A stretch of 64,000 nt of DNA from Candidatus Pacebacteria bacterium GW2011_GWA1_46_10 (lineage in GTDB: Bacteria; Patescibacteriota; Microgenomatia; UBA1400; PJMF01). The stretch is taken from assembly GCA_001002135.1 (NCBI GenBank), contig LCLP01000001.1:230274-294273 (forward strand), given 5' to 3'. Under the pieces are notes generated by a model, which worked only from the letters and a program-made list of their open reading frames with translations, searched no databases and had not been told where the DNA came from. Shown piece by piece: positions 3,668-38,495 of this stretch. A program made the translations under genes and the position numbers. Position 1 is the stretch's first letter. Each line of letters begins with the position of its first letter.

Positions 3668-3696
3668 CTGTTGGTTTTGGTCGTTGTAATGAAAGA

Positions 3697-11439: not shown

Positions 11440-11514
11440 TCCCCTGTAGCTCAATGGCAGAGCAGGTCGCTGTTAACGACAAGGTTGGCGGTTCGAGTCC
11501 ACCCGGGGGAGCCA
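11440..11514 (+). tRNA. tRNA-Asn (anticodon GTT), CCA encoded
   Basis: Cloverleaf is recoverable: acceptor tcccctg/cggggga, D arm gctc-aatggca-gagc, anticodon loop cTGTTaa, T loop ttcgagt. There is one mismatch each in the anticodon and T stems. Confidence 0.75.
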
Positions 11515-20817: not shown

Positions 20818-21082
20818 ACATTTTGGTTACATTTTCAAACTTTGAAATGATTACTTTTTCTATTTTTTCCGCAATATTTCGGTTAATGGGATGAAAGATA
20901 TTAAAATTACCGCTCGGACCCTTGCGAGTGGGGTAGGTCAATCGATACCCACCTTGCGGTCTGGTATAGATACCAATGGACCCAAAATAAAAGCTGTCGT
21001 TATAAACGAAGCTCGCAAAACCCACCAAGCCATCTCTTGCTTTGATTGGTGTTATTTGAACTTCGCTTAATATGTCTTTCAT
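20786..21082 (-). CDS. SpoVG-like nucleic-acid-binding protein
   Basis: Resembles SpoVG: N-terminal VQITPIKARDGLVGFASFVYNDSFYF, YPTRKGPSGNF and the HPIN motif. Confidence 0.5.
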   Translation of the reverse strand: MKDILSEVQITPIKARDGLVGFASFVYNDSFYFGSIGIYTRPQGGYRLTYPTRKGPSGNFNIFHPINRNIAEKIEKVIISKFENVTKMYARHSSFNTK

Positions 21083-21417
21083 ATTTTCCCCTTAGGTTGG
21101 TTTTCAATAGATAATCCATCGATGCATCGTTCCAACTCTTTATCACTCCAATTTTCAAGTGATTCCCAACCCATCATCAATAAATCCTCTAAAACCTCTG
21201 TATTTTGAGCGTGACAAATATCACAGACCTTGTCATTAATGATGATTTGGTATGCTCTATCACGGCTTACTTGTTTACCAAATGCTTGGATTTTTACACC
21301 CATCTTTTCTTTACGTGCTCGAATGCCTTCTTTTACCCTCTTACTAAATAGTCTGTGATAATCAGTTGTCAACAAATCCAGAAGTTGAGTCTGAAAACTC
21401 TTGTTTATTTTTTTCAT
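21079..21417 (-). CDS. Hypothetical protein; first gene of the minus-strand island operon
   Basis: 112-aa ORF with a palindrome and a conserved 5' motif upstream. Confidence 0.4.
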   Translation of the reverse strand: MKKINKSFQTQLLDLLTTDYHRLFSKRVKEGIRARKEKMGVKIQAFGKQVSRDRAYQIIINDKVCDICHAQNTEVLEDLLMMGWESLENWSDKELERCIDGLSIENQPKGKI

Positions 21418-21429
21418 TTGTTACTTTCT

Positions 21430-21444
21430 TTGACCGTTGGTCAA
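21430..21444. promoter_or_regulatory. 15-bp palindrome ttgaccgttggtcaa in the 5' UTR of the 21417 gene
   Basis: Perfect inverted repeat about 14 nt upstream of the start codon (minus orientation). Confidence 0.4.
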
Positions 21445-21617
21445 TACTTATTAGAATTGAGAAAAAATCAGTCAACCTTGCCATATCATCAACATCAAAG
21501 CCTTCCGTACTCCTTTCAGGGCTTTGCAACTTTTTGAGCTGGGAATTGGTAAAGCTCGACCGCATTAAGTCGAGGATATAAAAAGGAAGGTTGTCCCAAG
21601 TGGGTCAACTAGTTGTC

Positions 21618-23192: not shown

Positions 23193-23260
23193 AGTTCGTT
23201 ACATTTTCAAAACTTATGTTTGTTTATCATATTTTATCAGTTTAACGATAGAATAGTGTT

Positions 23261-24712
23261 ATGGGAGACAAGGCAAAAAAAGCTATAGAAACTCGAAGTA
23301 TTTCACTCGATGAAGTGATTGCCATCCTTTCGTCTAACAAACCTGAAGAATTGATTGGAGTAGAAGAAACGGCATATTTTGAGTGTAGAGGGGTTTCCTA
23401 TTTAACTTCTTTTGGTGAACAATCAGACATAGAAAGACATAAGTTTAATTTGGTTAAAGACGTGGTTTCGATTGCCAATTCTGGTGGTGGGGTTATCTGC
23501 ATCGGTGTCAAAACTTTAGAAAAGTCGAATGAAAAAACAGAGTATATTACCGAGATTGCACCAGTTCCTAAAGACCATATTCAAATGAAGAGTTGGGAAG
23601 ACATACTTTTTGGTTATAGTATTCCGAAATTTAAGAGACAGTGGCTTAAATATGGATACAGTGGCACAGATAAAAAAGTCTTTTGGATAAAGATTGCGGA
23701 CATTCGGGAGACTGCGGAATACCCAGTATTGGTGAGTTTATCTAAGAAATATGAGGAGGGTGTATCAACCGTTAAAGAGAACTTTGGTTTGTACTTTAGA
23801 GACCGTTCAGTCAATGTTCCATATTCTCCTGAAAAACTGCACACATTTATTCAGGCAGGGTTTAGAGGGAATGACAATGGTCAAGCGAGATACCTTAAAT
23901 CTATGCTAGAAGCGATTGACACAAAAATAGACCTACTTTCAAAAAAAGTGAGTAAAGAAGACGCAAAACAAATAAAACTTGAATTAAGAGAGGAGATTGC
24001 CAATTACGTTATTCAAAAGCTCGATAGCTCAAAAGGTCTTTTCTACCTTTTTGCTTTTCCTGTCAAAGATGCAGTAATCAAAGAGTTCTGGGAGCAAGGC
24101 GATAAATCTGTTTATCACCTTATCAAGAACACGCCACATTTAAGAGAGACGGGTTGGGATTTACGTGTAGCTCAGTCTGAGTATCCATATCCCAATAAAA
24201 ATAAATGGGAAATTACAAATGGTAATCGTAAGCTCACGAGCTTTGATATTCGAGGTAGATTGTTTAGTGCTGGTTCAATAGACGGGTTCTTAAATTGGGG
24301 GGTTAGAGATTATAAAACAGACGAAAAACACAACATAGTAAATGCATTTGCTCTAACAGAATATATTGATAGTTTTTTCCAAACCTTGGAAGTATTCAAA
24401 ACGGTTTTTGATATAAAAAGTGATTATGAGGTTGAAGCTGGGTTTTTGGAGGCTGGAAGCAACACTAAACTCTTATTTCCTCCTCATATTATAAGTATTT
24501 TCCACGCTTTGACAGAAACCATCAAACAGGAAAAATGGGATGTAGACGTTAGGCTGGAAGACGATAAGCACCCCTCTTATTTTGCTGGACAATTAATACA
24601 AGAAATTTATGTAAGTGGATTTGGTTATGTGAGCCATCCAGATTATCCTTATCTTACTAAAGATGATAAAGGGTATAAGGTTAATGAGGCTTTGTATATC
24701 AGACAAAAATAG
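23261..24712 (+). CDS. Protein with an N-terminal AlbA_2/Schlafen-like domain and an unknown C-terminal domain
   Basis: VKDVVSIANSGGGVICIGVKTLEKSNEK matches the AlbA_2 G-G-x-I-x-I-G-V block. Upstream an E/EF-rich segment (VEETAYFECRGVSY) is present. Confidence 0.5.
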   Translation: MGDKAKKAIETRSISLDEVIAILSSNKPEELIGVEETAYFECRGVSYLTSFGEQSDIERHKFNLVKDVVSIANSGGGVICIGVKTLEKSNEKTEYITEIAPVPKDHIQMKSWEDILFGYSIPKFKRQWLKYGYSGTDKKVFWIKIADIRETAEYPVLVSLSKKYEEGVSTVKENFGLYFRDRSVNVPYSPEKLHTFIQAGFRGNDNGQARYLKSMLEAIDTKIDLLSKKVSKEDAKQIKLELREEIANYVIQKLDSSKGLFYLFAFPVKDAVIKEFWEQGDKSVYHLIKNTPHLRETGWDLRVAQSEYPYPNKNKWEITNGNRKLTSFDIRGRLFSAGSIDGFLNWGVRDYKTDEKHNIVNAFALTEYIDSFFQTLEVFKTVFDIKSDYEVEAGFLEAGSNTKLLFPPHIISIFHALTETIKQEKWDVDVRLEDDKHPSYFAGQLIQEIYVSGFGYVSHPDYPYLTKDDKGYKVNEALYIRQK

Positions 24713-24843
24713 CTTTAGGTAATCGCAAGATTAAAGGTGTCGAATACTGTTTGGATATTTTGTAAACTAAATCCAAACTCTATCTCTCGGTTCTTAAATG
24801 CGTCAACCAGGGGGAGCTTAATATATTTTGATATAATTGATAA

Positions 24844-25467
24844 ATGGCATTTGATGAGGTTCTTTCTCCTGTTCTTCAGACAGATTTGAGGTCTAAGTAT
24901 CACCCCGTTCTTGTCGCTTATCAAAATAATGAGTGGATAAGAGAGCAAATGGCATTGCTCGAAAGTCACGGCGATCTAGATCATGCGGTACGGGTTGCTT
25001 TTTTGGCAGCTGAGTTAGCAAAGCATGTGGAAATGAACGATGATGAGATATTGATTATTGCCAAAGCAGGGTTGTTGCACGATCTAGGAAAATTACAAAT
25101 ACCGCCTGAAATTTTTAAAAAAGTACAACTTACAGAAAAAGAGAGAGCTTTAGTTGATGAGCACGTTCGAGCTGGCTTTGAGTTGGTGAAGGAGCGTTTC
25201 CCGTTTGTAGCAAAAATAATGGTTGCTCATCACGAGTTTCAAGCTAGAAGGTACCCGAGAAAAAATGACCGAGATCCTGTTGGCACGAGACTGAGGGAAT
25301 TGCAGAGATTATTAGCAATCGCCGACCAGACAGACGCTCTGTTGAGTGCCAGGTCATACAAAAAAAGATGGCCAATCTATAAAGTGAGAGAATACCTTAA
25401 TGATTTATTTGATGATCACCACTTAATCGATTTTTCTATTGCTAAAAGAATCAGCATAGTAGATTAA
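24844..25467 (+). CDS. HD-domain metal-dependent phosphohydrolase
   Basis: H...HD...H...D pattern in HAVRVAFLAAELAKH, GLLHDLGK, AHHE and DQTDAL. Confidence 0.65.
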   Translation: MAFDEVLSPVLQTDLRSKYHPVLVAYQNNEWIREQMALLESHGDLDHAVRVAFLAAELAKHVEMNDDEILIIAKAGLLHDLGKLQIPPEIFKKVQLTEKERALVDEHVRAGFELVKERFPFVAKIMVAHHEFQARRYPRKNDRDPVGTRLRELQRLLAIADQTDALLSARSYKKRWPIYKVREYLNDLFDDHHLIDFSIAKRISIVD

Positions 25468-25473
25468 ATTTTT

Positions 25474-25830
25474 TTAAATCTTTTTTCCGGCAATTTTTTG
25501 TCGGAGGATTTCAAATTCGGGTATTTCTGCGTCCAGATTCTGAGCGACCACAAGTAAGTTATCAATGGCGTTCTGAGCGTCTTCCCAGAGTCCGGCAGCT
25601 GCATAAGTTTGGGCAAGATGGTAGTTGAACCAGAGATCACGTTCTGGGCCGGCCCAGGCAGAGTCAGCTTCTTGTTGGAGTTGATGGATAAACTCATCTA
25701 GAGCTTGGCGAAGCTCGTTTTCAGGTTTTTGTTCACGCACTGTTTGGATGAATATCTCCCTGCTTGGTTTGGCCGTTGCCGTCTCGGCAATAACTGAGTC
25801 ATATGTGGCTGGCTTTGTCTCTTTGTCCAT
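25474..25830 (-). CDS. Hypothetical small helical protein
   Basis: 118-aa ORF convergent with the HD gene. Confidence 0.35.
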   Translation of the reverse strand: MDKETKPATYDSVIAETATAKPSREIFIQTVREQKPENELRQALDEFIHQLQQEADSAWAGPERDLWFNYHLAQTYAAAGLWEDAQNAIDNLLVVAQNLDAEIPEFEILRQKIAGKKI

Positions 25831-25943
25831 AGGTTTACTTTACAATAAAAGATTAAGAAATCATAGAAAAATAGTCAAATTCTAGCAATCGTTCTTAAAA
25901 ACGACTTGGATTTGTGATACTTAAGATGGTGTTCGGATAAAAT

Positions 25944-25965
25944 CCTCCTGGGGGGAGCCAAGGGT
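25944..25965 (+). repeat. Degenerate copy of the tRNA-Asn 3' end (tcctcctggggggagccaag); candidate attR
   Basis: The tRNA 3' end at 11496..11516 reads gagtccacccgggggagccaaag. The candidate at 25941..25970 reads aatcctcctggggggagccaagggttaaag. About 17 of 22 positions match, with one indel. Confidence 0.35.
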
Positions 25966-26012
25966 TAAAGTTTCCTTGTAGTCTGTATAAAACCTTCTTA
26001 TAATGTAACTAA

Positions 26013-26624
26013 ATGCCTAAAGAAACATCGAATGGTAATCCCACTGAGGAAGAAGTGTTGAAAAGGAATCCTACCGAAAAACTGGTTTTAGCCTCAATTG
26101 TTAATGAGGTTTGCGCAATTTATCCAGGGGACGAGTTTGACGAAGATCGTCTTTTAGAAAACGCCCGAAGGATTATAGATGCCCTTAATCAATTAGAGGT
26201 AAGTGGTACGCACGCATCTTTTTCAAAATATGGAAACTCTAAAACATTCAGTGGTTTAGCCTCTACTGGTAGCGGTACCGTTCAACATGATCTTTCAGAT
26301 CAAAAAACAGAAAAAACTACTAAGATTGGGAAGCGCGTGGAAGAGCGGATAGGTTTATATAAAGTTATAAAAAAAGACGACGGCAGTTATTTTACTTTAA
26401 CATTCAGTTACTTCTTGGAGCAGGTAAATACTGAAAAGGCAATTGTGTCGGTTGGGCCGTTGACCAATATTTCCTACGACAGAGAAGATCATTCTATTAA
26501 GGGGGTCTCCAAAGGTCTACCAAAATTGCTTGAGCTTTTTGGATACAAAATACTCTGGTTTAAAACCACCAGCTTGTGGGGTAAATATAAACCAGCATCA
26601 ATTGCTGTAGAAATACTTAGATAG
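26013..26624 (+). CDS. Hypothetical protein
   Basis: 203-aa ORF with no motif. Confidence 0.4.
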   Translation: MPKETSNGNPTEEEVLKRNPTEKLVLASIVNEVCAIYPGDEFDEDRLLENARRIIDALNQLEVSGTHASFSKYGNSKTFSGLASTGSGTVQHDLSDQKTEKTTKIGKRVEERIGLYKVIKKDDGSYFTLTFSYFLEQVNTEKAIVSVGPLTNISYDREDHSIKGVSKGLPKLLELFGYKILWFKTTSLWGKYKPASIAVEILR

Positions 26625-26860
26625 GAACACTCCATTCTACATATTCAACTAAACGGAACGGGTAATTCTCGAACAACTAGTATGAAACAAATTCGATAAG
26701 GGGGCAATCAATCCCAAAGAGATAAAAATTGGCGCGTTGATGAAAAAAGCAGTGATCTTAGAACCAAGCTCATCACTGTTCTCAACTTTCTCGATACCAG
26801 GAAGCTTAAATGAAGTCTTATAGTATATTCGAATTCCTTTCTTTGATATAATTTTTAACA

Positions 26861-27670
26861 ATGAATTTACCCTCGGAAGAAACTCCTATTTCGGTTTGGG
26901 AACAAGGAGATGAAGCAATAGCAGAACATTTACGTTCTGTGAGGAAAACGGTTGATTATAAATTACTAGTTTCTCAAGATTCTCAGATTACTTTCTTTGG
27001 AGAAAGGCACGGGAATACACTCATTGATAGAGAGATAGAGAGTAATGCTGCGCAGTTGAGAGAGTTGGGAGTGACTACTTTCTTGATAGAGGCTCCTGAT
27101 ACTGAAGAGCAAAGAGAACTATTTACTTTAATTAATCGAGGCGATTTTAGTAGGATAAAAGAAACTGATTTGGGTAAATTAGTCGAACCAGGTTCGGTGA
27201 GCTCATATACACGTATTACTCAAGCAAGCAAAATTAGCTTAGCCAAAGCTTTACACCAGGCGGGAATTGAGATGATACCTGTGGATCACATTGCGAGCAG
27301 ACAAGTTGCCTATCAGACGCGCCAACAGGCTTTAAGAGAGAACGTTGAGGCTATTATTGGCAGTGGGAGATCGGGGATTGTCAGTCTGATTGGGCAGTAT
27401 CACGCAATAAGAAGAGAGAGGACTAATGTGCTGATTAACATGTTGGAAAAAAGAGGCATTAGTTGTCATTCGGCGATTTTTGTTGGTGGGCTCGAGGAGA
27501 CTGAGAAAGTGACTGAGCCAGCCAAGTTGGCAAAGCTTGATCACGAAAGGTTTATGTTCGCAGGGGAGGGTAATTATCCGTTTGGAGGTAGAGTGGATTG
27601 GGTAGTGCATTTACCACAACAAAATTTGACGATGACTGAGAGATTAAAGTCTCTAGAAGAAGATGTTTAG
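26861..27670 (+). CDS. Hypothetical protein, possibly ChaN/TraB/Tiki-superfamily-like
   Basis: GERH motif near the N-terminus (FFGERHGNTLIDRE) and overall alpha/beta pattern. Weak support. Confidence 0.35.
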   Translation: MNLPSEETPISVWEQGDEAIAEHLRSVRKTVDYKLLVSQDSQITFFGERHGNTLIDREIESNAAQLRELGVTTFLIEAPDTEEQRELFTLINRGDFSRIKETDLGKLVEPGSVSSYTRITQASKISLAKALHQAGIEMIPVDHIASRQVAYQTRQQALRENVEAIIGSGRSGIVSLIGQYHAIRRERTNVLINMLEKRGISCHSAIFVGGLEETEKVTEPAKLAKLDHERFMFAGEGNYPFGGRVDWVVHLPQQNLTMTERLKSLEEDV

Positions 27671-27733
27671 AGTTCTTATTAATTCATGAAGATGAAGCTC
27701 TAGTTTTCCTTACAGATGATCTTCTTTGTCCAG

Positions 27734-28093
27734 CTAGGCGTCTTGCTTTGTTTGGTGAGTGATGCCGTCTTTATGATGAGGTGGGGAGTAAAGTGTATAA
27801 AGTTTGAGTGGTTTGTCTGGTGAAGTGTTAATGACATTGTGTTGAGTCCCAGCCGGAACAACAATGGCATCTCCGTCTTTGATCAAATGCTCCTCGCCGT
27901 TCATAATCAGTTTTCCCTCGCCGGCCTCGACCCGTAAAAACTGATCCACGATTTCGTGAACCTCCATCCCGATTTCTTCATTTGGCTTGAGTGACATGAG
28001 GACAAGTTGGGTATGTTGGCCGGTGTATAGTACCTGGCGGAAGAAGTCGTTTTGGAGGGTTAACTCTTCGATGTTTTGCAAAAAGCCAATCAT
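27734..28093 (-). CDS. Cupin-domain protein
   Basis: Cupin motifs: HEIVDQFLRVEAGEG and GDAIVVPAGTQHNVIN. Confidence 0.6.
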   Translation of the reverse strand: MIGFLQNIEELTLQNDFFRQVLYTGQHTQLVLMSLKPNEEIGMEVHEIVDQFLRVEAGEGKLIMNGEEHLIKDGDAIVVPAGTQHNVINTSPDKPLKLYTLYSPPHHKDGITHQTKQDA

Positions 28094-30229: not shown

Positions 30230-31120
30230 ATGCGCCGTAATTTCTTCTTATGGCTCTCGATCAGCACGTTTTTCATTTTTTTAGTTGGTTTTTTGATTGG
30301 TGTATCGTTTGGCCAACACCCCGATCTTCAAATCAATCGGCTGTTGACACTGATTAACCTTCAACAAGCAGATTCAGTGGAGGATGCCGAGCGACACCTA
30401 TCAGCTTGGAGCAAGAATCTTCAGCAATTCGGCCATTTATTAGACTCACCCTGTGACTCGGAAGTGATTAAGATTGTCAACGATGACCCGCGTTTTACCG
30501 CCTACGGCATGGTGGAACCTAATGGAGATGTCATTTGTACCAGTGAACTCTCAACGACTAATGTTAATTTGGCCGACCGGCCGTATTTCCAACAAGCGCT
30601 GGAAACCAAACAGCTGAGTATGAGCGGTTTTCAGGTCGGCCGGTTTACTGGTAAAAGCGTGATCGCCTATGCTCTGCCGGTACTCAACACTCAGGGAGAA
30701 GTGACCCAGGTGGCTTTCATCGGTATTGATTTAGCTTGGGTGAACCGACTATTCAACAACTTTAAACTGCCAAGCGGGATGGAGGTAGTGATGACTGATG
30801 CCAATGGGGTGATCGAACTGTATTATCCGACCGATGACACCAAGATCGGCCAGTCAGTGTTCGACCCCAAGATCTTTAGCATCGTGTTGTCTCAACAAAC
30901 GGGCAAAATCAGCGCCAAGGGGGTGGATGGTGTGACGAGAATGTATTACTACGGACCGATTTACCTGGATAAAGATGAGGAAGCAGACGCCTTTCTGCTG
31001 GTTGGTTTGCCTCGCCGGCCCATCATCGACTTTTCACCAATTATGCCGGTCATCTTGTTTGGCAGTGGGTTGGTCTTGATTGTTGTCCAATTCAAACTCC
31101 TCAGGAGGTTTGCTCATTAA
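30230..31120 (+). CDS. Membrane-anchored Cache-domain sensor protein with no output domain
   Basis: N-terminal and C-terminal TM helices flank an extracytoplasmic domain carrying the Cache hallmark DRPYFQQA. Confidence 0.55.
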   Translation: MRRNFFLWLSISTFFIFLVGFLIGVSFGQHPDLQINRLLTLINLQQADSVEDAERHLSAWSKNLQQFGHLLDSPCDSEVIKIVNDDPRFTAYGMVEPNGDVICTSELSTTNVNLADRPYFQQALETKQLSMSGFQVGRFTGKSVIAYALPVLNTQGEVTQVAFIGIDLAWVNRLFNNFKLPSGMEVVMTDANGVIELYYPTDDTKIGQSVFDPKIFSIVLSQQTGKISAKGVDGVTRMYYYGPIYLDKDEEADAFLLVGLPRRPIIDFSPIMPVILFGSGLVLIVVQFKLLRRFAH

Positions 31121-31295
31121 TCAAACAACCAGGTGATCTTAGAGTAAGAGCAAAACCAGAAAGAGTGCGACGAAGCTAAGGGTGATAATGACGTAATCGT
31201 AGATGACCCCCAACTGCTGTCGTTTCCTCAGTCGGATTAGTATGTAAACAAGAACGATGGCCGCGACCGCAGTCAACAACTGTGTCATCTTAATT

Positions 31296-32369
31296 TTAGC
31301 GCGTGAAAATACTTACTACTGAGTCAAGTACCGACAAAATAAAGTGATCAACAACACTCATAAAAGAGACAAATCCTTGACCGATTGTTGTCCAAAAAGA
31401 GGCAGGTGTTTGCGCCTCGTTTTCGGTTGCGCTGATAGATTTACCCAAGACCTTGGTCTGATCGGAAAAATCGAGTTTAGTGCCAGGATTAGTGAGAGTG
31501 TCTTTTCCTAAAACGCTGGCATCGATTTCCTCTGTTACCACTGGGACTTCAATCTCTTCAAGAGCCGAGGCTCTCTCAGGCATAATCAGGTAGTTCACGG
31601 AGGCAAATTCTTTGAGCACATTGGTGCCTCGGCCGTCGTTGGCCAAGACAATCGAACTGGGTAAAAATTCAACTTGAGTAGGGCCAGGTTTTTGGGTCTG
31701 AAAATAGACTGTGGCAAACTTGCCGGCTGGTTGAGTAAAACCAGGGTTTGGCAAACCGCCACTCAAACGTAGGTACCCAATGGTATTATTGACTTCCTCT
31801 TGAATAAAAATGGTGGCAAAAGAATCGGTTTTGTCAATTTTGACTACTTTTAAAAATTCAGGATCATATGAGAGATCCATTTGAATGGCGTTGATGGCGG
31901 TTTGAACGCCCGTCACCTCCAAGTTAAGCGGGAAAACCTCACCGAGTTTATGTTGTTTGTCGTTGGGGATCAGGACAGAGACGGTTTTTTTGGTCAGGGT
32001 GGTCGAGACCCCAAATTGATTGAGGACTGCCACTTCGACCGCCACCAGGCCTATCGAGGTGAGGGCTAAGATTGCTAAAGTGGCGGTGTTAAGTAGCAGT
32101 GAACGCAGACTACTGGGAGTGCGGTCATGGCGGTGGCTGATTTCTCGCTGGCAAAACTCACACCGCTGGCCTGGTTTGCCTGCCCGGCAAGCTAGGCAGA
32201 GCACTCGCTTGGGGGCAATGAGCCAAGCGATCGGGTAGCCGACAGCCACAAATACGCCGAACAAGGCGAAAAGATGAGCAGCTATCCAAGAAAAGACAAT
32301 AAATGTTCCTAGTTTGATCAGTGACCAAACCCCTTGGGTAGTTGATTTGATAAGGCGCAAGAATGACAT
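31296..32369 (-). CDS. Membrane protein with a cytoplasmic Cys4 zinc ribbon and an extracytoplasmic beta-rich, possibly cohesin-like, domain
   Basis: N-terminal TM helices, CLACRAGKPGQRCEFCQ, a third TM, then an extracellular domain (QMDLSYDPEFLKVVKI...TIGYLRLSGG). Confidence 0.45.
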   Translation of the reverse strand: MSFLRLIKSTTQGVWSLIKLGTFIVFSWIAAHLFALFGVFVAVGYPIAWLIAPKRVLCLACRAGKPGQRCEFCQREISHRHDRTPSSLRSLLLNTATLAILALTSIGLVAVEVAVLNQFGVSTTLTKKTVSVLIPNDKQHKLGEVFPLNLEVTGVQTAINAIQMDLSYDPEFLKVVKIDKTDSFATIFIQEEVNNTIGYLRLSGGLPNPGFTQPAGKFATVYFQTQKPGPTQVEFLPSSIVLANDGRGTNVLKEFASVNYLIMPERASALEEIEVPVVTEEIDASVLGKDTLTNPGTKLDFSDQTKVLGKSISATENEAQTPASFWTTIGQGFVSFMSVVDHFILSVLDSVVSIFTR

Positions 32370-32376
32370 AGTTTGC

Positions 32377-32962
32377 TCACTTTACATGATATAGCAAGAC
32401 GGATAAATCTACCAGATCACATGTATCATCCAGGTTGATGTCACAAACTTTTGTGTCCACTGATTTTGTTTGATCAGCGGTGGTCTGAGTCATAAAGTTT
32501 ACCCAAGTGGCAACCCAGTTGCCAACCGCAGTGCTCACCTCGCCGGCGGAGATGCGGCCGTCCTGGTTGTCGTCAAAGAAAGCGACCGTGGTGGGCAGTA
32601 GTGGAGTGGCCGTGACTATCTGCTGAGTAACGGTGGGCACCACAATGACACTAGGGGTAGTGGCGGTGCTGGTGGTACTGGTGGTATTTGAGGTACTACT
32701 GGTGGTAGTAGTTGAAGTGGGGGTGGGGGTAGGAGTAGGGGTGGGTGCTACGCCGTAACAGTCACTCTCATCAAACTCACAGGTGGTCGGATTGGCATTA
32801 CACTTCAAATCACCAGCAAAGTACCCCTGGGAGCGGCAGGGGGCACCATTCAAACGCCAGATCACCACAGACACTAATTCGTACTGTGGCCGTGACATCC
32901 TGAGCAGCCGCCGACACGGGGAGGGCTGAAAAAAGCAGCAAAAGGGCAGCCAAAATTATCAT
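32377..32962 (-). pseudogene. Dockerin-like Thr/Pro-rich secreted protein gene, frameshifted at a G5/C5 homopolymer
   Basis: A signal peptide (MIILAALLLLFSALPVSAAAQD) starts at 32962 and overlaps the upstream stop as ATGA. That frame terminates after about 50 codons. The long ORF 32377..32898 continues in another frame after the GGGGG run at 32839..32843. The C-terminus has two dockerin-like repeats (DDNQDGRISAGEV, DINLDDTCDLVDLSVL). Confidence 0.5.
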
Positions 32963-33654
32963 TTTTCATTGTCTGGTTTATCGGTTACCGACGGTTTTTG
33001 CTTGAGACTAACATTCAAGGAAATGAAGTTACGCGCCAGCCGCAGCAGCACTAAGATCCCCGCCGCGCCGATGATGATTGGCGGCCAGGGTTGATATTGA
33101 TTCCAGAGGGAAAGGCCGCGGTAGTAAAGGCCTTGCAGGACACTGGCTGGCGCCACCGTGAAATACAACTTGCTGGCTGCTGCCACGCCAATCGTCGCGC
33201 CCTCAGGGTTGTTGACGGTGGCGGTGGGCCTGGCTTCTAGATAAGCAAAGTAATCGCCTGGCACAGTCTTGATGGGCAAGGTGAGCATCACCTCAACAAT
33301 CTTTGCTTCGCCGGGCTCCAGGTTAAAGTTGGCCGGTTGAAAGGTAAACCAGGCACGATCAGGGCGCATTGCTGGTTGTTGTTCGTGATAGGTAACATCC
33401 AGGATGTATTCGCCGCCCTCGTCGCCGGTATTAACGACGGTCACTGACGGTAGTTGATAGAGAGTGCCAGGCTTGAGTGACTCGTCTAGCTGGATTTTGC
33501 CGGTACCTACTCCCACGCCGATTCTAGCTTGAATCAAAGGGGTAAAAATTAGGGAAAGAAAGGAGAACAGAACAACAAAAGAAAACAAAAGGTATGACTT
33601 CATGGCCTCGACTTTATCACCTGGTGGTAACAAACGCAAGTTATGCTGAAACAT
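32959..33654 (-). CDS. Cell-surface protein with N-terminal signal/TM and C-terminal TM anchor (CscA/DUF916-DUF3324-like)
   Basis: Hydrophobic N-terminus, beta-rich ectodomain, C-terminal TM IIIGAAGILVLL followed by basic RLARNF. Confidence 0.4.
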   Translation of the reverse strand: MFQHNLRLLPPGDKVEAMKSYLLFSFVVLFSFLSLIFTPLIQARIGVGVGTGKIQLDESLKPGTLYQLPSVTVVNTGDEGGEYILDVTYHEQQPAMRPDRAWFTFQPANFNLEPGEAKIVEVMLTLPIKTVPGDYFAYLEARPTATVNNPEGATIGVAAASKLYFTVAPASVLQGLYYRGLSLWNQYQPWPPIIIGAAGILVLLRLARNFISLNVSLKQKPSVTDKPDNEK

Positions 33655-33669
33655 CCAGCTTCCAGTCTT

Positions 33670-34194
33670 TTATGAAGCTGAAGCTTGGACAGTGACGGTC
33701 AATGATTCTTGAGCAGTTTGAGTGGTGGCGGTTGGAGCCAGAAACTGCAGATCAAAGACTTGGGTACCAGAGGTAGCGACGCTCGCAGCCAAAGTTTGAT
33801 TACTGGTAGTCAAGGCTGTCCAAGTGGGAGTGGTATCACAAGTGGTGATACAAAACTTGTGAGCATATTGTTCACTGCCGGCTGTCGCGGCCAGCGTCCA
33901 GCTAGTAGAGTCAGCGCCCCGAATATTGAGGTCTTCGGTCACATTACCATCATTGGTGGCAGTTTGACTGTCGTTTACTCCATTGGAAGTTGTATCAGCG
34001 TTACCACTGGTGCTCACCGTGGTGTAGGCGACCGATCCGTCAGTCACCGCGACCGAAACGTTTTGAATCGTGACTGTGGCGGTAACGTTGGCGGAACTGG
34101 CAGCGGAGGCTAAAGGAGAGAAGGCCAGTGCCGCTATCATTAGACTGAGGATGGCTTCTGACCAGGAAAACGTAAACAAGCGAGTAAGTCTCAT
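33670..34194 (-). CDS. Secreted Thr-rich surface protein, WxL-like
   Basis: Signal peptide ending ASAAS. STSWTLAATAG motif. Homologous to the C-terminal half of the next protein. Confidence 0.4.
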   Translation of the reverse strand: MRLTRLFTFSWSEAILSLMIAALAFSPLASAASSANVTATVTIQNVSVAVTDGSVAYTTVSTSGNADTTSNGVNDSQTATNDGNVTEDLNIRGADSTSWTLAATAGSEQYAHKFCITTCDTTPTWTALTTSNQTLAASVATSGTQVFDLQFLAPTATTQTAQESLTVTVQASAS

Positions 34195-34308
34195 ATTTCT
34201 CCTTTAACTGATGTTACCGATAAATACAGTGTATAGCGTAACAAGTTAAAAAAGTTGAAACAATAGCACTTAATATATCAAAGTGAGTAAATTCAAGTAC
34301 CAGGCCAG

Positions 34309-35391
34309 TTAAGGAGTTGAAGCCACTATAGTGACAGTCGTACTTTGTTGAGAAAGGGAGGCGGTGCTGGTGGGAGTAGTCAGTCTTAAAGACAAGTTTC
34401 TGGTGGCGCCTTGAGAGACATTCGTATCAAAAGTATACAGTGTATCCGCGGCCGCAAACGTGGTCCAGCCAGTGCCGTCGTTATTGGAAAACTCCCACAA
34501 GACCTGGTCAGCCCCATTGGCGGTATTGAGAGTCCAGGTGACACTACCATCTGAGAAAGTAGTGGATCTCACATCTAGGTTGGCCGGCCCGGTATCCACC
34601 GAAACTGTTTCTGGATCATTCAGCCCACTACTCGTAGTATCTTGGGTAGTGTTCGGTGCCTGGTAGCCAAAGGCCACCGCGCCGTCTGTACTCAGGGAAA
34701 TACTGACAGCGGGAGGAGGGGTGTAAGTAATGGTCAGGCTCACAGTGTCATGTCTCACGGTGACCGCAGCGTTGTTGTTATTGCCGGTGGCCAGGTCATT
34801 ACTGATTCTAAATAAAACAGTGCTGCTTGAAGCCTGAAGATTAGCAGGTACGCTGACGGCGGTACCGGTTTTTTGCGCCCAGTTGCTGGTAGCCGAGAAG
34901 CTTGTTCCGGATGAAAAAGTGCCAATTAAAGTTTCGCTACTATCACGGAAAGTAAAGGGACCGACCGTGCCGGCCGCGCCAGTGGCATATTCTGATACCC
35001 GCCAATAATAACTGTTACCGGTGCCCGAGCCGACCTCAGTCACGGTACTGTTAGCCGGGATGCCAAACAAACTTTCCCAAGTCCCACTAATGTCTCGCCG
35101 CCGGTCAGTGTTAGTTTTGTTTTTACCACTGATACGAAGTTGGAGCGACCCGTTGCTTGGACTCCCATCGGCTGATTGCCACGAGTCAGTGGTGTTATTA
35201 GCCCCTGCGGGATAGGTAAAAGCCCAACTCTCTGTATCACTATCAAAAGTCCAGGTTTTAGTGGCAGTATCTGCGTTGACTGTTGAGATGAGATGGAGAA
35301 ATTTCAGTTTTTGTGAAAAGGGGAATAAACCACTGAAAAGCCAGCCTAGCAGTAAACAAACAAAGCTTGTTTTGGCCAATAGTTTACGCAT
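34309..35391 (-). CDS. Secreted Thr/Ser-rich surface protein, WxL-like
   Basis: Signal peptide, then GSVTWTLNTANGADQVLWEF. Shares the DG(S/A)VA(Y/F) and WTL blocks with the 174-aa neighbour. Confidence 0.4.
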   Translation of the reverse strand: MRKLLAKTSFVCLLLGWLFSGLFPFSQKLKFLHLISTVNADTATKTWTFDSDTESWAFTYPAGANNTTDSWQSADGSPSNGSLQLRISGKNKTNTDRRRDISGTWESLFGIPANSTVTEVGSGTGNSYYWRVSEYATGAAGTVGPFTFRDSSETLIGTFSSGTSFSATSNWAQKTGTAVSVPANLQASSSTVLFRISNDLATGNNNNAAVTVRHDTVSLTITYTPPPAVSISLSTDGAVAFGYQAPNTTQDTTSSGLNDPETVSVDTGPANLDVRSTTFSDGSVTWTLNTANGADQVLWEFSNNDGTGWTTFAAADTLYTFDTNVSQGATRNLSLRLTTPTSTASLSQQSTTVTIVASTP

Positions 35392-35508
35392 GCTTGTGGC
35401 TGATTATAACGGCAATCACCCTCGCGGTCAGCAGCTTGCTTTTACCATTAAATTTACTCTATGATGAGTATCAGTAGTGGTGTATCAATTATTTGCTAAG
35501 GAGAAAAC

Positions 35509-35988
35509 ATGGCAAAACCCACAAAGACAACCACTGTCTCGACCGCCGCCAGTTTGGGTCAGCTCGAGAAAGTGTTGGAAGAGTATCTGGTGAAGAAAGC
35601 ACCCGCCCTGCCGACCAATCTCAAGGAGTTATTAGTGAAGTTCGCCCCGTATCTGGCCATTATCGGGGTGGTCCTGTCGGTACCAGCTTTATTTACGGCC
35701 TTGAGCGCCGGCGCTTGGCTTTCTCGTAATTATTACTGGGCCATGACCGGTGCCACACTCGGCTGGCAGTATTACTTGGCACTGGCTTTAAGTGCCGTCA
35801 CCGTGGCGCTGGAAGCCTTCGCTATTCCAGGACTCTTCGGTCGAAAAATGAGCGCTTGGAAGCTCTTGTTTTACGCCGTGCTGGTCAACACCGTGTACTC
35901 ACTGGTGTATTTCAACCTGGCGGGTTTAATTCTGGGCACGCTCTTGAGCCTGTACCTGTTGTTTCAAGTCAGATCCTACTATCACTAG
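35509..35988 (+). CDS. Small integral membrane protein
   Basis: Four hydrophobic helices. Confidence 0.5.
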   Translation: MAKPTKTTTVSTAASLGQLEKVLEEYLVKKAPALPTNLKELLVKFAPYLAIIGVVLSVPALFTALSAGAWLSRNYYWAMTGATLGWQYYLALALSAVTVALEAFAIPGLFGRKMSAWKLLFYAVLVNTVYSLVYFNLAGLILGTLLSLYLLFQVRSYYH

Positions 35989-36105
35989 GCTCACCCTAAA
36001 ATTGAGCTAGTTTGATATAGTTTAACCGATTGAGTGTGTTGGTGGTGTTTGTTACACTTTGTGTATCATGTTCGCGTGTAGAATTAATTGCCAAATGAAC
36101 AGGTA

Positions 36106-36130
36106 AACCAGCCAGGATGGCTGGTTTTTT
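36106..36130 (+). terminator. Rho-independent terminator
   Basis: aaccagcc-aggat-ggctggtt hairpin followed by tttttt. Confidence 0.6.
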
Positions 36131-36155
36131 AATTTTTGGCAAGCAAAGGAGAATA

Positions 36156-37031
36156 ATGAAAAAAATTATCAGGAAAAGTGTGGCGCTTTTGGTGGCCGCG
36201 CTCGGTGTGGTGTTTTTGGCTGCCGGTCGAATCCAAGCAGTCGACACTTATTTCAACGGTTTTGAAGTCGATACCGACGGCTGGTTGAGTAACGGGGGCA
36301 CAATCACCAGAGTGGCCAGTGGTACTAATAGTATTACTTCAGCTGATGGCGACTGGCACGCTGAAGCGCTGATTGGCGATGACTTCGACGGTGTCTTCAC
36401 TCGCTGGGGCGGGTACGAAAGTGCCTTTCCAGCTAACGGGTATGTCACTGAGCTTGATATTTATTTGGATATGGCTTTAAACACTGTGGTGGGAACCGAT
36501 CTGCGATTTGACTACTCATCGGCGATTAATGATCCCACCGGCACACACCGCCGAGACTTTATTTTTAGTGTCGGGACGGATCCAACTACCACTGGCCAGT
36601 TTGTGATGAGTGCCAGCAACAACGCGCCGGGGTGGCCAGCCAACCCAGGCAGAGATCCGTTTGTCATTGATACCACTGGTTGGTACACCTTCCGGCATAC
36701 TTTCCAGGATAATGGCGCTGGGGTATTAGCAGTAGTGATGGAGGTATTGGACAGCAGCGGCACAGTGCTGCACAGCTGGACCTTATCTGATCCGTCGGAT
36801 GTGATTGGTACCACGGTCGGTGGCAACCGCTATGGTTGGTTTGTGACCAGCGACTTTAGTTTCCTGGCGGTTGACAACTCCGAGAAAAATAATCTCGCAG
36901 GGCCAGTGCTCACTAAGGCTGAGCTGCTGATGGATAGCGGGATTACCGGCAAAGGGCTGGAAACCGCGCCGGGGCTGATGAAGCCGTTTAACCCAAATTC
37001 AAAGGCAGCTGACAACGCCGGCAAGAAATAA
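36156..37031 (+). CDS. Secreted protein of unknown function
   Basis: ATG at 36156 with aaggag RBS. Signal peptide MKKIIRKSVALLVAALGVVFLAAGRIQA. Confidence 0.5.
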   Translation: MKKIIRKSVALLVAALGVVFLAAGRIQAVDTYFNGFEVDTDGWLSNGGTITRVASGTNSITSADGDWHAEALIGDDFDGVFTRWGGYESAFPANGYVTELDIYLDMALNTVVGTDLRFDYSSAINDPTGTHRRDFIFSVGTDPTTTGQFVMSASNNAPGWPANPGRDPFVIDTTGWYTFRHTFQDNGAGVLAVVMEVLDSSGTVLHSWTLSDPSDVIGTTVGGNRYGWFVTSDFSFLAVDNSEKNNLAGPVLTKAELLMDSGITGKGLETAPGLMKPFNPNSKAADNAGKK

Positions 37032-37058
37032 TAAATTGTTAACTTCTGTGAAGTGAGT

Positions 37059-37089
37059 GACGCTCCGCCGCGGCGGAGCGTCATTTTTT
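37059..37089 (+). terminator. Rho-independent terminator
   Basis: Perfect 24-bp palindrome gacgctccgccgcggcggagcgtc followed by atttttt. Confidence 0.65.
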
Positions 37090-37375
37090 ACCCTGTAAGA
37101 ATTTTTTACCTTGTGCGTCTCTAAGTCAGCGGTATTTTTTCCTTTAACTACCTCTTATAAATAAAAGAAAGGAAACGATGAACGCCAACTATAACCGGGA
37201 CTATTTAAGGGAACACCCTCGTCACGTGATGGCTGATTTTGAGCGGTTGGAGGCGGAATTGAGGAGTATCAGCGCCGTCACTGATGACAGTGAGCAAATA
37301 AACGACGCCGGAGTGTACGGGTGGAGGGGGAACGGCGAAGATGACGATAATGAGGAGTAGTACAATGAGATCGGC

Positions 37376-37879
37376 ATGGACAAAAGGACGTTTGGCGCCT
37401 CCTATCTCAAGTACTCAGACGCCATTTTTCGGCATTGTTACTTTCGTGTCTATGACCGAGAGTTGGCCCGCGACCTGACCCAGCAGACTTTTACTCGGGC
37501 TTGGGAATATTTGAGCAAAGGAAAGATAATTAAAAATATGCGGGCTTTTTTGTATCAAACTGCCAGAAACCTAGTGGTCGATTACTTCAGGAGCAAACGG
37601 AGTATTTCACTGGATACTCTGTTGGAAAAAGGTTTTGAGCCCTCGGGTAATGCCGGCCGGGATCCGGAAAAACAGTTAGAAAGTCGGGAGGTTCAATTTT
37701 TATTACTCAAACTGCGCGCGGCTGATCGAGAGGTGATCGTGATGCGTTACATTGATGGCCTGAAACCGCGTGAGATCGCCTCGATCACGAAAGAAAACAC
37801 CAACGTGGTCTCAGTGCGGCTCTATCGCGCGTCGAGAGCATTTCGTAAAGTCTGTGAGGAACACGGCTATGACTCCTGA
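37376..37879 (+). CDS. ECF-type sigma-70 family sigma factor
   Basis: Region 2 (YFRVYDRELARDLTQQTFTRAWEY) and region 4 (REIASITKENTNVVSVRLYRASRAFRK). Confidence 0.8.
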   Translation: MDKRTFGASYLKYSDAIFRHCYFRVYDRELARDLTQQTFTRAWEYLSKGKIIKNMRAFLYQTARNLVVDYFRSKRSISLDTLLEKGFEPSGNAGRDPEKQLESREVQFLLLKLRAADREVIVMRYIDGLKPREIASITKENTNVVSVRLYRASRAFRKVCEEHGYDS

Positions 37880-38495
37880 AGAACAAAAACTCACACAATT
37901 ATTTGGCGCGGCGCGCCAAGTTAAGTTGACCCCAGTGGAAAAATGGTGGCTGAAAACCAAAATCGAGTTTCACCAGTTGGTCCGTTTTGAGATGCCTGCT
38001 CTTTCACTCACCAAGCCAGCGGCAATACTGTTGGCTTCATTTATTTTATTGGCGGCGGCCGGCGTAGTGGTGGCTGCCTCACACACTTCCCCTGGTGACC
38101 TGTTGTACCCACTGAAAGTGGCCAGCGAAAAAGTGAATGACAGTGTGCAGTCTTTTTTTGGTCAAACAGAGGTGGTAGAACAAGAATCAGTTGAGTTCCC
38201 CGATGAACAGCGTGAAGAATCAAGTGAAGAACCGTTGACAGCAGAGCCGGCAGAAACTGACCAGGAATCAGAGTTGGAGACGGCAGGACCCCTTGACCCA
38301 GTTGATTTGCCGGTAGAGAGAGAGGAACTGCCTGACGAGCTGCCCGGGATCAGCGGTGATGACCACCCCACTGGTGATCAGTCGGTGACGGTGGAAACGC
38401 CGGCTGTCAACCCTAATGTTCCTCCCACCCCTGACGGTACGCCGCCGCTCGAGCTCAAGGTCAATGCCAAGGCCCAGTTGGAGCTTGATTTGTAA
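37869..38495 (+). CDS. Putative anti-sigma factor: membrane protein with acidic, Pro-rich extracytoplasmic tail
   Basis: Start overlaps the sigma-factor stop. Single TM AAILLASFILLAAAGVVVAA. Position downstream of an ECF sigma. Confidence 0.5.
   Translation: MTPEEQKLTQLFGAARQVKLTPVEKWWLKTKIEFHQLVRFEMPALSLTKPAAILLASFILLAAAGVVVAASHTSPGDLLYPLKVASEKVNDSVQSFFGQTEVVEQESVEFPDEQREESSEEPLTAEPAETDQESELETAGPLDPVDLPVEREELPDELPGISGDDHPTGDQSVTVETPAVNPNVPPTPDGTPPLELKVNAKAQLELDL

Follow-up and report, generated by a model that had tools for sequence, protein, structure and literature searches.

A conserved five-gene surface cassette of CPR bacteria proposed to encode an usher-less donor-strand fibre

In chaperone-usher pilins, the pilin domain lies at the extreme C-terminus and the C-terminal carboxylate docks in the chaperone. 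The monoderm Bacillus subtilis builds a donor-strand fibre without an usher from TasA and TapA, with the N-terminus of the cell-surface associated TapA serving as the donor strand for the fibre subunit (PMC10151520). CPR bacteria also build donor-strand pili, the Pam pili, as seen by cryo-EM in a preprint that predicts, from AlphaFold models, usher-less assembly by PapD-like chaperones with a transmembrane (TM) anchor, and that reports remote homologs in Microgenomatia (bioRxiv 10.64898/2026.03.03.709456). WxL clusters encode a small domain-only protein, a large one that ends in the same domain behind an N-terminus that varies, and an Ig-like protein whose TM helix is C-terminal (PMC9772566, PMC10599100); their defining pattern is a pair of WxL motifs spaced by about 68 or 106 residues. 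In cohesin-dockerin anchoring modules, whether cellulosomal or not, one partner is cell-bound and the other secreted.

Here we compare with these systems a cassette within a 64,000-nucleotide stretch (the window) of Candidatus Pacebacteria bacterium GW2011_GWA1_46_10. Its features and those of its neighbours are as follows.

30230-31120, plus strand: A, stand-alone protein with a Cache domain (dCache_1 at 59.7 bits, cutoff 45)
31296..32369, minus strand: B, membrane protein of 357 aa, cohesin ectodomain at residues 132-229
32377..32962, minus strand: C, dockerin protein, in ORF pieces 32810-32962 and 32377-32898 with a gap or frameshift near 32850
32959..33654, minus strand: D, 231 aa, signal peptide, single PapD-like Ig sandwich (residues about 46-167), amphipathic helix, C-terminal TM helix
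33670..34194, minus strand: E, small subunit, 174 aa, signal peptide, conserved N-terminal extension, then the E-domain
34309..35391, minus strand: F, large subunit, 360 aa, signal peptide, N-terminal domain of ~180 aa, C-terminal E-domain (residues about 229-359)
35403..35431, minus strand: promoter-like site (CTGACC, 17 nt, TATAAT) immediately upstream of F, from a consensus scan only, 10 of 12 positions matching
37376-37879, plus strand: I, ECF sigma (Sigma70_r2 and r4_2 matches)

The five genes F-E-D-C-B run along the minus strand from 35391 to 31296 and are syntenic across many CPR relatives of ultra-small size; in 80 species-level genomes the genes follow one another on one strand as a large E-domain protein, a small E protein, D, C and B. 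Within ±9 kb of D in the 80 related loci, only four families are conserved (E-domain, D, C and B), and they are strictly co-conserved, with their order kept, in about 60-80 genomes. D is present at all 80 loci and B at 59-62 of them, many of the B-less loci being short contigs or having D near a contig end. In the window the intergenic gaps are 114 nt (F-E), 15 nt (E-D) and 7 nt (C-B), D and C overlap by 4 nt, and the promoter-like site is a possible start of the operon. Each of the five proteins has a signal peptide or TM segments, and the initial annotation's reading of a cell-surface display or adhesion locus is upheld. Its view that the whole region is self-contained is not, as synteny among the relatives is kept only for F-E-D-C-B. 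Gene A, genes G and H, and the sigma/anti-sigma pair showed no conserved synteny with the five genes in the 80 genomes, and are neighbours unrelated to the operon.

E and F, earlier described as two homologous Thr-rich proteins (19.5% and 16.4% Thr, respectively), do share a domain: E is homologous to the C-terminal 130 aa of F (32% identity, E=1e-9, BLASTP). The domain ends 1-4 residues from the C-terminus in 54 of 54 large and 77 of 77 small proteins, and we propose that in both proteins it forms an incomplete pilin fold of the Ig-like type at the very C-terminus. The E family comprises 1420 clusters at 50% identity and has no Pfam model. The mature N-terminus of E is SSANVTATVTIQN, and the family consensus of its extension is AADTATVTATVTVQN. 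Although this extension is one of the most conserved stretches of E, it falls outside the sheet in the monomer model (AF2, pLDDT 89.4), in which the first in-sheet strand begins past it, at residue 48; together with the Cys115/Cys119 pair it is invariant or nearly so across the family. The top Foldseek PDB matches of the model are nearly all donor-strand filament subunits (FimA, CS20, FimG, PapE, CsuA/B, CfaB, Caf1, archaeal bundling pili, cannulae and threads), with weak scores (E 0.014-0.2, probability up to 0.98, TM scores 0.3-0.5) and no match at E<=1e-3. Ig-like sandwiches of a generic type are common, which calls for caution with such a fold match. From the model and the extension, E is proposed to be a shaft pilin that would polymerise by donor-strand complementation.

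The N-terminal domain of F diverges fast, and most F homologs align solely to its C-terminal 37-62%. Among 54 large relatives the N-termini are unrelated, including Peptidase_S8, fn3, BNR_2, F5/8-C, RIP, DUF7483 and others. These large proteins lack the VTATVTVQN extension and have only 'VSVSxTxDG' in common; FimH and PapG likewise have no N-terminal extension. F is accordingly proposed to be a tip or payload subunit. As in chaperone-usher pili (Fim, Pap, Csu, Caf1), the extension is on the proposed shaft protein of the cassette and not on the proposed tip protein, the pilin domain is at the extreme C-terminus, and the gene set can be read as adhesin, pilin and chaperone.

The candidate chaperone is D, whose model (AF2, pLDDT 86.1) is one Ig-like sandwich. 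Foldseek returned 79 PDB matches at E<=1e-3, mostly chaperone-usher chaperones (FaeE, DraB, Caf1M, CupB2, SafB, FimC, CsuC and SfaE) and MSP/ASH PapD-like domains. The matches to PapD-like chaperones, at E 7.5e-5 to 5e-4, correspond to domain 1 of those proteins. A solved WxLIP of E. faecium (9i1y_B) matches at E=2.2e-4. Two lysines stand out in the D family: K53 of the first strand, which hardly varies, and K162 of the last strand, which is invariant; we take the pair to be reminiscent of PapD R8/K112. One D homolog carries PF00345 (PapD_N); among the window proteins there is no Pfam match to Fimbrial, PapD_N/C or Usher. Based on its modelled fold, D is proposed to be a membrane-tethered chaperone. 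The cassette differs from chaperone-usher systems in having no usher and no outer membrane, in a chaperone that is single-domain and tethered to the membrane, and in a fibre end and anchor that would be formed by a strand-donating dockerin protein.

That protein is C. The window lacks 32 bp of the gene that are found in other assemblies, one of which has NN at this point, and because of this absence the 173-aa 'dockerin' ORF is an artefact. Intact C, whose start overlaps the end of D, is 205 aa long and consists of a signal peptide, a strand 'DVTATVRISV', a Cys-rich repeat, a linker rich in Thr/Pro, and a dockerin containing a pair of Ca-loop motifs that, on inspection of the sequence, are unusually far apart. 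Dockerin_1 falls below threshold in the window copy (17.2 against 22.9 bits) and is matched by 25 of 49 C family members (best E=6e-11), with DUF4215 matched by 3. The earlier assignment of a dockerin-repeat protein thus stands at the level of the family, not for the ORF to which it was given. The consensus of the mature N-terminus of C, AASSATVNATVKISVCGN, resembles the extension of E. A 14-aa profile built from the E extension was scanned over 4047 ORFs, and C proteins made up 10 of the top 19 non-E matches, always at the mature N-terminus (p=9e-14). An alternative is that E and C share these conserved N-termini as a processing, glycosylation or sorting signal. C is proposed to be the base adaptor and terminator.

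The gene for B starts 7 nt past that of C, in the same orientation. Its product opens with a TM hairpin, followed by a CxxC...CxxC zinc ribbon, another TM segment, the cohesin ectodomain and a hydrophobic C-terminal segment. The description of B as a Zn-ribbon membrane protein with a cohesin-like ectodomain was confirmed: Pfam Cohesin is matched with 31.5 bits against a cutoff of 24.1 (36 of 48 B family members also match), and the CxxC...CxxC motif is kept in the family consensus. We propose that B is the membrane anchor receiving the dockerin of C.

We favour the reading of F-E-D-C-B as an operon for a chaperone-assisted, usher-less, donor-strand surface fibre, and judge its chances to be even. 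It draws on direct observations of gene content, homology, synteny, Pfam matches, the fold similarities of monomer models and the way in which the extension motif is spread over E, F-like proteins and C. From these we infer strand exchange and the fibre itself, as well as the role of D as a chaperone and the pairing of C with E and with B. In the proposed mechanism D, tethered at the membrane by its C-terminal helix, would cap newly exported E-domains. F has an E-domain without an N-terminal extension, and would therefore be a strand acceptor only, placed at the fibre tip with its lineage-specific payload domain. E combines the extension (VTATVT(V/I)QN) with the fold, and would therefore polymerise head-to-tail into the shaft. 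C, whose mature N-terminus copies the extension and which has no E-domain, would plug the last E subunit and end growth, while its Thr/Pro linker and C-terminal dockerin would fasten the fibre to the cohesin ectodomain of B. Strand donation by TapA to TasA (PMC10151520) and PamR in Pam pili (bioRxiv 10.64898/2026.03.03.709456) are precedents for such mimicry of the extension by C. The proposed fibre shares with TasA/TapA a monoderm setting and the lack of an usher. Unlike TasA/TapA, the cassette has no SipW-type signal peptidase, the window proteins give no Pfam match to camelysin (Peptidase_M73), and the cassette includes a dedicated candidate Ig chaperone together with anchoring by cohesin and dockerin. 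Against the fibre stand the weak pilin match of E, the sub-threshold score and wide loop spacing of the window's dockerin, and the one Ig domain of D, as compared with two in the chaperones of chaperone-usher and Pam systems.

In our best model the fibre system would be a variant form of the Pam pili of CPR bacteria. Pam pili, known from Ca. Mycosynbacter amalyticus, are CPR-restricted like the cassette, and both operons went unannotated by sequence methods. Judged by the published descriptions of Pam, both systems have Sec-exported Ig-like pilins with proposed donor-strand assembly, PapD/FimC-like chaperones with a C-terminal TM helix, no usher or trans-envelope machine, and a base protein proposed to donate its N-terminal strand and so tie the fibre to the membrane. 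They differ in that Pam pilins have two domains and a linker strand, whereas the shaft candidate here is single-domain with an N-terminal strand; in two chaperones of two domains each against one chaperone with one Ig domain; in the anchor, which is the RbmA-like PamR in Pam and a dockerin adaptor with a membrane cohesin here; and in the highly variable payload domains on the product of the cassette's first gene. It is quite improbable that the cassette amounts to no more than the Microgenomatia orthologue of the known Pam operon, with F a linker-polymerising two-domain pilin of the PamA/PamB type, E a PamT-like single-domain tip and D the orthologue of PamC/D. The language-model homologs of PamA in Microgenomatia that the preprint reports, which include a Roizmanbacteria protein, are consistent with orthology, as are Roizmanbacteria members in the E and D families, the two-domain, 360-aa F with a size near that of PamB (38.7 kDa), and the TM-anchored PapD-like design of D as described for PamC/D. 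However, PamT has no donor strand while E has the most conserved one, the large proteins have no conserved strand upstream of the E-domain and their N-termini are mutually unrelated, Pam chaperones are two-domain, and the Pam operon has PamR and neither cohesin nor dockerin.

The WxL/Csc clusters of Lactobacillales and Bacillales share with the cassette the three-part architecture of small, large and Ig-TM proteins, and the initial annotation had pointed to a WxL/Csc-type locus. Membership is rejected. WxL, DUF916 and DUF3324 gave no Pfam match at E<=1 among window proteins or at E<=10 among 40 E-family members; the (S/T)WTL motifs once likened to WxL domains are wrong in number and spacing, as E has only one WxL motif, followed 26 residues on by a WxxL; D has a single Ig domain; and no window protein is an LPxTG protein. 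D, thought to resemble CscA/DUF916, does have the signal peptide and C-terminal TM helix, without a DUF916 HMM match. WxL/Csc clusters differ in exactly these respects, having the dual motif, a WxLIP (DUF916, DUF3324 and TM) with two Ig domains and an LPxTG partner, and the cassette adds conserved cohesin and dockerin genes in a CPR lineage. A WxL-like display platform without polymerisation is nevertheless conceivable, though unlikely: E-domains would sit on the cell wall, a WxLIP-like D would stay bound by strand insertion and tether them near the membrane, and cohesin-dockerin would be a separate attachment device. The match of D to 9i1y_B and the variable payloads, which resemble those of large WxL proteins, speak for it together with the shared architecture, as does AF2 work on WxL predicting that a WxLIP strand enters the incomplete WxL sandwich, much as the cassette's incomplete fold would be completed. 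Besides the missing HMM matches and the motif and Ig counts, such a platform leaves unexplained a conserved N-terminal strand found only on the small protein and C, and the best structural neighbours of E are polymerising pilins. For E and D, the folds indicate chaperone-usher pilins and PapD-like chaperones as strongly as WxL or more so. A minimal cellulosome-like scaffold, in which the cohesin-dockerin core docks a secreted Cys-rich protein at the membrane, with E, F and D as surface proteins expressed alongside it but independent in mechanism, has a very slim chance. Cohesin and dockerin are indeed the cassette's only matches to curated Pfam families. Nonetheless there is a single pair, with no carbohydrate-active enzyme in the conserved gene set; the four families are strictly co-conserved; and the likeness of the N-termini of C and E ties both halves together. 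Known cohesin-dockerin anchoring modules resemble the cassette in that the two domains come from neighbouring genes, with a cell-bound and a secreted partner. The cassette differs from them in its single pair, in a dockerin protein with no enzyme module, in the sub-threshold score and unusual loop spacing of the window's dockerin, and in a cohesin carried by a polytopic zinc-ribbon membrane protein rather than an SLH- or sortase-anchored scaffoldin.

As for the neighbouring genes, the membrane anti-sigma was not confirmed: its basis is an 11-nt overlap with the sigma gene and one TM segment, and it has no family match. A holds up as a stand-alone Cache sensor: dCache_1 passes the Pfam threshold, TM segments are at 4-29 and 264-292, and an output domain is absent. 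The ECF sigma was likewise corroborated, as both Sigma70_r2 and r4_2 pass their Pfam thresholds.

The locus is real and of greater interest than an ordinary surface cluster, although the family labels of the initial annotation are only partly right. Gene calls, made from the ORFs of the window together with those of other assemblies, place the following features between 30230 and 38495, the letters naming the encoded proteins:

A, 30230-31120, + strand: dCache_1 protein
B, 31296-32369, - strand: cohesin membrane protein
C, 32377-32962, - strand: dockerin protein
D, 32959-33654, - strand: single-Ig protein with a transmembrane (TM) segment
E, 33670-34194, - strand: small E-domain protein, 174 aa
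F, 34309-35391, - strand: large E-domain protein
G, 35509-35988, + strand: 159-aa polytopic membrane protein
H, 36156-37031, + strand: 291-aa secreted protein
60-aa ORF, 37178-37360, + strand: very acidic, directly 5' of the ECF sigma gene
I, 37376-37879, + strand: ECF sigma factor
J, 37869-38495, + strand: 208-aa protein with one TM segment, overlapping I by 11 nt

A promoter-like site lies immediately 5' of F, and the start of C overlaps the end of D. E is 100% identical to an NCBI protein of Candidatus Pacebacteria bacterium GW2011_GWB1_47_8, an organism that NCBI taxonomy places in Minisyncoccota (CPR/Patescibacteria). The 60-aa acidic ORF is also called by gene callers elsewhere (L001:4978-5160), and a strong terminator-like hairpin (36105-36127) follows G.

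A profile built from D homologs retrieved 80 species-level genomes. The cassette F-E-D-C-B is widespread, being found in at least 80 species, among them members of Pacebacteria, WWE3, WS6/Dojkabacteria, Roizman-, Woese-, Levy-, Davies-, Beckwith-, Collier- and Amesbacteria, plus some mislabelled MAGs. When ORFs were called in the related loci and searched with profiles of the window proteins, nearly every one of the 80 loci on a long enough contig had a same-strand cassette of a large protein (~300-1495 aa, E-domain C-terminal), a small E protein (~165-190 aa), D (~200-245 aa), C and B, with the order large-small-D kept in most. When all ORFs up to 9 kb on either side of D in these loci were clustered without supervision, only four conserved families emerged: D (80 loci), the E-domain shared by E and F (75), C (67) and B (62). 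The next cluster was an antisense artefact (13 loci). All four families either have no Pfam model or have only a marginal one. Several public MAGs with the cassette bear the labels Gammaproteobacteria, Chitinophagaceae or Bathyarchaeia (L011, L014, L016, L021 and others); mislabelled bins or contaminating contigs are the probable explanation.

The neighbouring genes do not share this conservation. A is a Cache protein, as first annotated, scoring 59.7 bits with dCache_1 (gathering score 45); a TM segment lies at each end (4-29 and 264-292), no output domain is present, and the protein adjoins the cassette in one of the 80 related loci, a close relative. Likewise, I is an ECF sigma factor by its matches to Sigma70_r2 and r4_2, and a sigma factor lies near the cassette in a single locus of the 80. 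The anti-sigma half of the proposed pair is positional only, as J matched no anti-sigma or other family in the family scans. G and H also lacked a family match in those scans, and G, H and J are found beside the cassette in none of the 80 loci. H was considered as a relative of the N-terminal domain of F and rejected, the comparison showing no relatedness. With Cache, G, H and sigma/anti-sigma in 0-1 of 80 loci, these were discarded as members of the system. Therefore, what had been taken for one self-contained locus is an operon of five genes, F-E-D-C-B, flanked by unrelated ones.

Two homologous Thr-rich proteins had been recognized in the cluster, and their relationship is borne out: E aligns with the last 130 residues of F at 32% identity (E=1e-9), with Thr contents of 19.5% in E and 16.4% in F. 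The shared domain is strictly C-terminal, ending 1-4 residues from the C-terminus in 54/54 large and 77/77 small proteins; it is similarly placed in a library of 1.84 billion proteins, where its profile found 1420 clusters at 50% identity (E<=1e-3). For most F homologs, the alignment covers just the C-terminal 37-62% of F. The N-terminal modules of the large proteins differ widely and include DUF7483, DUF7361, Gly_rich_2, fn3, Peptidase_S8, BNR_2, F5/8 type C and RIP, among others. Among loci L007-L086, the payloads include Peptidase_S8 subtilases (three), BNR/sialidase-like repeats, an F5/8 type C lectin and a ribosome-inactivating protein (one), so the position occupied by F may carry enzymes or toxins besides adhesins.

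The small proteins differ from the large ones at the start of the domain. In small E proteins the mature N-terminus is strongly conserved, reading AADTATVTATVTVQN and then ISVSVSDG, while the large proteins retain only the second part, (V/I)SVSxTxDG, with unrelated sequence N-terminal of it. AF2 models E (pLDDT 89.4) as a beta-sandwich in which the first strand to join the sheet starts at residue 48. Searches of PDB sequences, by sequence and by profile, gave nothing meaningful for E or D. Foldseek found no PDB match to the E model at E<=1e-3 and only weak likeness beyond that (best E=0.014, TM 0.3-0.5); most of the 50 matches listed are subunits of donor-strand-complemented filaments, including FimA, CS20, FimG, PapE, CsuA/B, CfaB and Caf1 along with the bundling pili of Pyrobaculum, the cannulae of Pyrodictium and the thread of Sulfolobus.

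For D, AF2 (pLDDT 86.1) gives a single Ig sandwich, after which come an amphipathic helix and a TM helix. Among the 79 Foldseek matches of this model in the PDB at E<=1e-3, domain 1 of PapD-like chaperones predominates, led by FaeE (7.5e-5) and continuing with DraB, Caf1M, CupB2, SafB, FimC, CsuC and SfaE (range for the group, 7.5e-5 to 5e-4). Eukaryotic PapD-like MSP/ASH domains are matched as well, as is the solved WxLIP of E. faecium (9i1y_B, E=2.2e-4, rank 22). One D homolog has a precomputed match to PF00345 (PapD_N). Across the family, a Lys in the first strand is nearly invariant and a Lys in the last strand is invariant, the latter within an invariant GxAAAxKLxF. This pair may correspond to the R8/K112 pair of PapD, which holds the pilin C-terminus.

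The cohesin call for B was upheld. B matches Pfam Cohesin (PF00963) over residues 132-229 with 31.5 bits (gathering score 24.1). The family is also matched by 36/48 of its relatives, whose consensus retains a CxxC...CxxC zinc ribbon. At many loci a second, longer B-like protein (450-940 aa) occurs after or instead of the ~340-aa B, for example at L039:3464-5233, L044:12668-14452, L045:11680-14490 and L056:3270-6086.

For C, the gene in the window is missing 32 bp (GCTGAAGGCAGTGAGCAGTGCGACAACACTGA) near ~32850 that are present in two other assemblies, which puts the dockerin gene into two frames. GenBank assembly GCA_003524865.1 has NN at the same position. Probably the gap arose in assembly or scaffolding, and the gene is not a pseudogene. 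The 173-aa dockerin ORF of the initial annotation is a shortened form of a 205-aa product, which has a signal peptide, a Cys-rich repeat, a Thr/Pro linker and a C-terminal dockerin. The dockerin assignment has support at the level of the family, in which 25/49 members match Dockerin_1 (PF00404; best E=6e-11) and EF-hand matches also occur, but the copies in the window and in L001 remain below threshold (16.6-17.2 bits, 17.2 for the window copy, against 22.9) and match over the second repeat only. A duplicated Ca-binding loop-helix motif is characteristic of dockerins, and two D-x-N/D-x-D loops are visible in the sequence of C.

C proteins have a common mature N-terminus, AASSATVNATVKISVCGN, that is similar to the N-terminal extension of E. 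A 14-residue, hmmalign-registered profile of the extension was scanned over 4047 ORFs of the 80 loci, and its top 80 matches comprised 61 small E and 10 C proteins. Those 10 are among the best 19 non-E matches (hypergeometric p=9e-14), and the match is always at the mature N-terminus. In two WWE3 loci without a detected dockerin protein, a short ORF (76-96 aa) directly after D shares the strand-like motif, here VVSATVT (L062:10609-10839 and L079:6279-6569); it may be a minimal terminator lacking the dockerin.

The initial annotation had likened the cluster to WxL/Csc loci, with E and F as WxL-like proteins and D as a CscA/DUF916-like anchor. The small, large and Ig/TM layout is indeed common to WxL clusters and the cassette, as an architectural analogy only, and the predicted strand insertion of WxLIP in those clusters, along with the fold likeness of D to WxLIP (9i1y_B, E=2.2e-4), adds to the resemblance. 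However, the WxL domain (PF13731) is a C-terminal domain of 160-190 aa with two Trp-x-Leu motifs spaced ~68 residues apart in large and ~106 in small proteins (PMC9772566), whereas in E a WTL (residue 99) and a WTAL (residue 125) lie just 26 residues apart, and the C-terminal domain of F has a single WTL. WxL, DUF916 (PF06030) and DUF3324 (PF11797) were not matched by the window proteins at E<=1 in Pfam or in the NCBIfam scan, nor by 40 members of the E family at E<=10. In addition, WxLIP/CscA proteins combine DUF916 and DUF3324 as tandem Ig domains with a C-terminal TM helix, while D has a single Ig sandwich and a TM helix. The cassette is thus WxL-like in outline and, by these defining features, not a member of that group.

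In chaperone-usher pili, the pilin has an incomplete Ig fold plus an N-terminal donor strand, and the tip adhesin is without the strand. The conserved extension, present in the small and absent from the large proteins, may be a counterpart of that strand, and the top PDB matches of E are pilins of this pathway, though at E>=0.014. The cassette does not qualify as a classical chaperone-usher system for want of an usher and, less clearly, of a two-domain chaperone. Pfam and NCBIfam scans found no Fimbrial, PapD or Usher match in the window proteins, and no usher-sized or usher-like family is among the four conserved around D in the 80 loci. Chaperones of that pathway have two Ig domains (PF00345/PF02753) in contrast to the one Ig domain and TM anchor of D. 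No outer membrane is expected in a CPR bacterium.

Among published systems, the Pam pilus of Ca. Mycosynbacter amalyticus comes closest; for it, a June 2026 preprint showed CPR donor-strand pili without an usher by cryo-EM structures of the pilins (bioRxiv 10.64898/2026.03.03.709456). Its proposed chaperones are PapD/FimC-like by AlphaFold/Foldseek and have C-terminal TM helices, and its terminator is membrane-anchored and strand-donating. Remote homologs of the system are reported in Microgenomatia (bioRxiv 10.64898/2026.03.03.709456). Common to Pam and the cassette are the absence of an usher and a putative PapD/FimC-like chaperone that a C-terminal TM helix anchors in the membrane. They differ in that PamC/D have two domains each and the cassette has one such protein, of a single domain. 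Pam major pilins join a 9-strand NTD, a linker donor strand and a truncated Ig CTD, while E is a single domain with a donor-like N-terminal strand; the two-domain F-like proteins have unrelated N-termini and no conserved strand N-terminal of the domain. Strand-mimicking accessory proteins have precedents in TapA, for TasA (PMC10151520), and in PamR, in Pam pili (bioRxiv 10.64898/2026.03.03.709456). Where Pam has PamR, the cassette has a cohesin-dockerin pair, and the preprint mentions neither cohesin nor dockerin. Pam sequences were looked for and are given in neither the preprint nor its supplement. A literature search found nothing relevant on a cohesin-dockerin system in CPR pili. Apparently, the cassette is a second and simpler form of such usher-less pili. 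It would then belong with the known donor-strand pili of CPR that have tethered chaperones, the cohesin-dockerin anchor being the possibly new element.

We put at about even the chance that the cassette encodes a chaperone-assisted, usher-less donor-strand fibre, a model under which each of the five conserved genes can be assigned a role. D would be a membrane-tethered chaperone for exported E-domains. With a putative groove but no strand, F would be the subunit at the tip that bears the payload, in the manner of FimH or PapG, while E, with both strand and groove, would polymerise into the shaft through strand exchange. C, which has the strand and lacks the groove, would fill the last E subunit and so stop the fibre growing. 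More tentatively, and with somewhat less than even likelihood, the Thr/Pro linker and dockerin of C would join the fibre to the cohesin of B at the membrane. The data show the gene content, homology, synteny, Pfam assignments, likeness of the monomer folds and spread of the strand motif; strand exchange, chaperoning and the pairing of C with E and with B are inferred.

It is a rather unlikely extension of this model that the cassette encodes a new, cohesin-dockerin-anchored monoderm pilus with a swappable tip, and that WxL, chaperone-usher and CPR systems are one ancient machine. If so, it would be the first pilus anchored by cohesin and dockerin, its base a strand-donating dockerin protein held in a membrane-embedded cohesin, and its tip slot would be filled by adhesins, subtilases, sialidase-like or ribosome-inactivating-protein domains according to the CPR lineage. 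The architecture and the fold match between D and WxLIP would then point to a common machine of an Ig chaperone plus an incomplete-Ig subunit. 

The cassette would link chaperone-usher pili, WxL clusters and cohesin-dockerin anchoring, which have so far been studied separately. For CPR bacteria a life attached to host cells is generally assumed, yet few surface structures are known from them. The cassette points to a swappable tip position, which could set host or substrate specificity.

Elsewhere in the window, the stretch from 11440 to 28000 has a low GC content (35-40%, compared with 45-51% in the remainder) and looks like an integrated mobile island. It begins at a tRNA-Asn (11440-11514) beside a large serine recombinase (11473-12972, - strand) and contains a type I restriction-modification system of hsdR (12957-16409), hsdS (16406-17761) and hsdM (17758-19479), the hsdR product having a C-terminal Schlafen/AlbA_2 domain. 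At the start of the window (26-5421, + strand), a 1213-aa ORF without a Pfam match precedes a 596-aa protein that has a Peptidase_C39-like domain.
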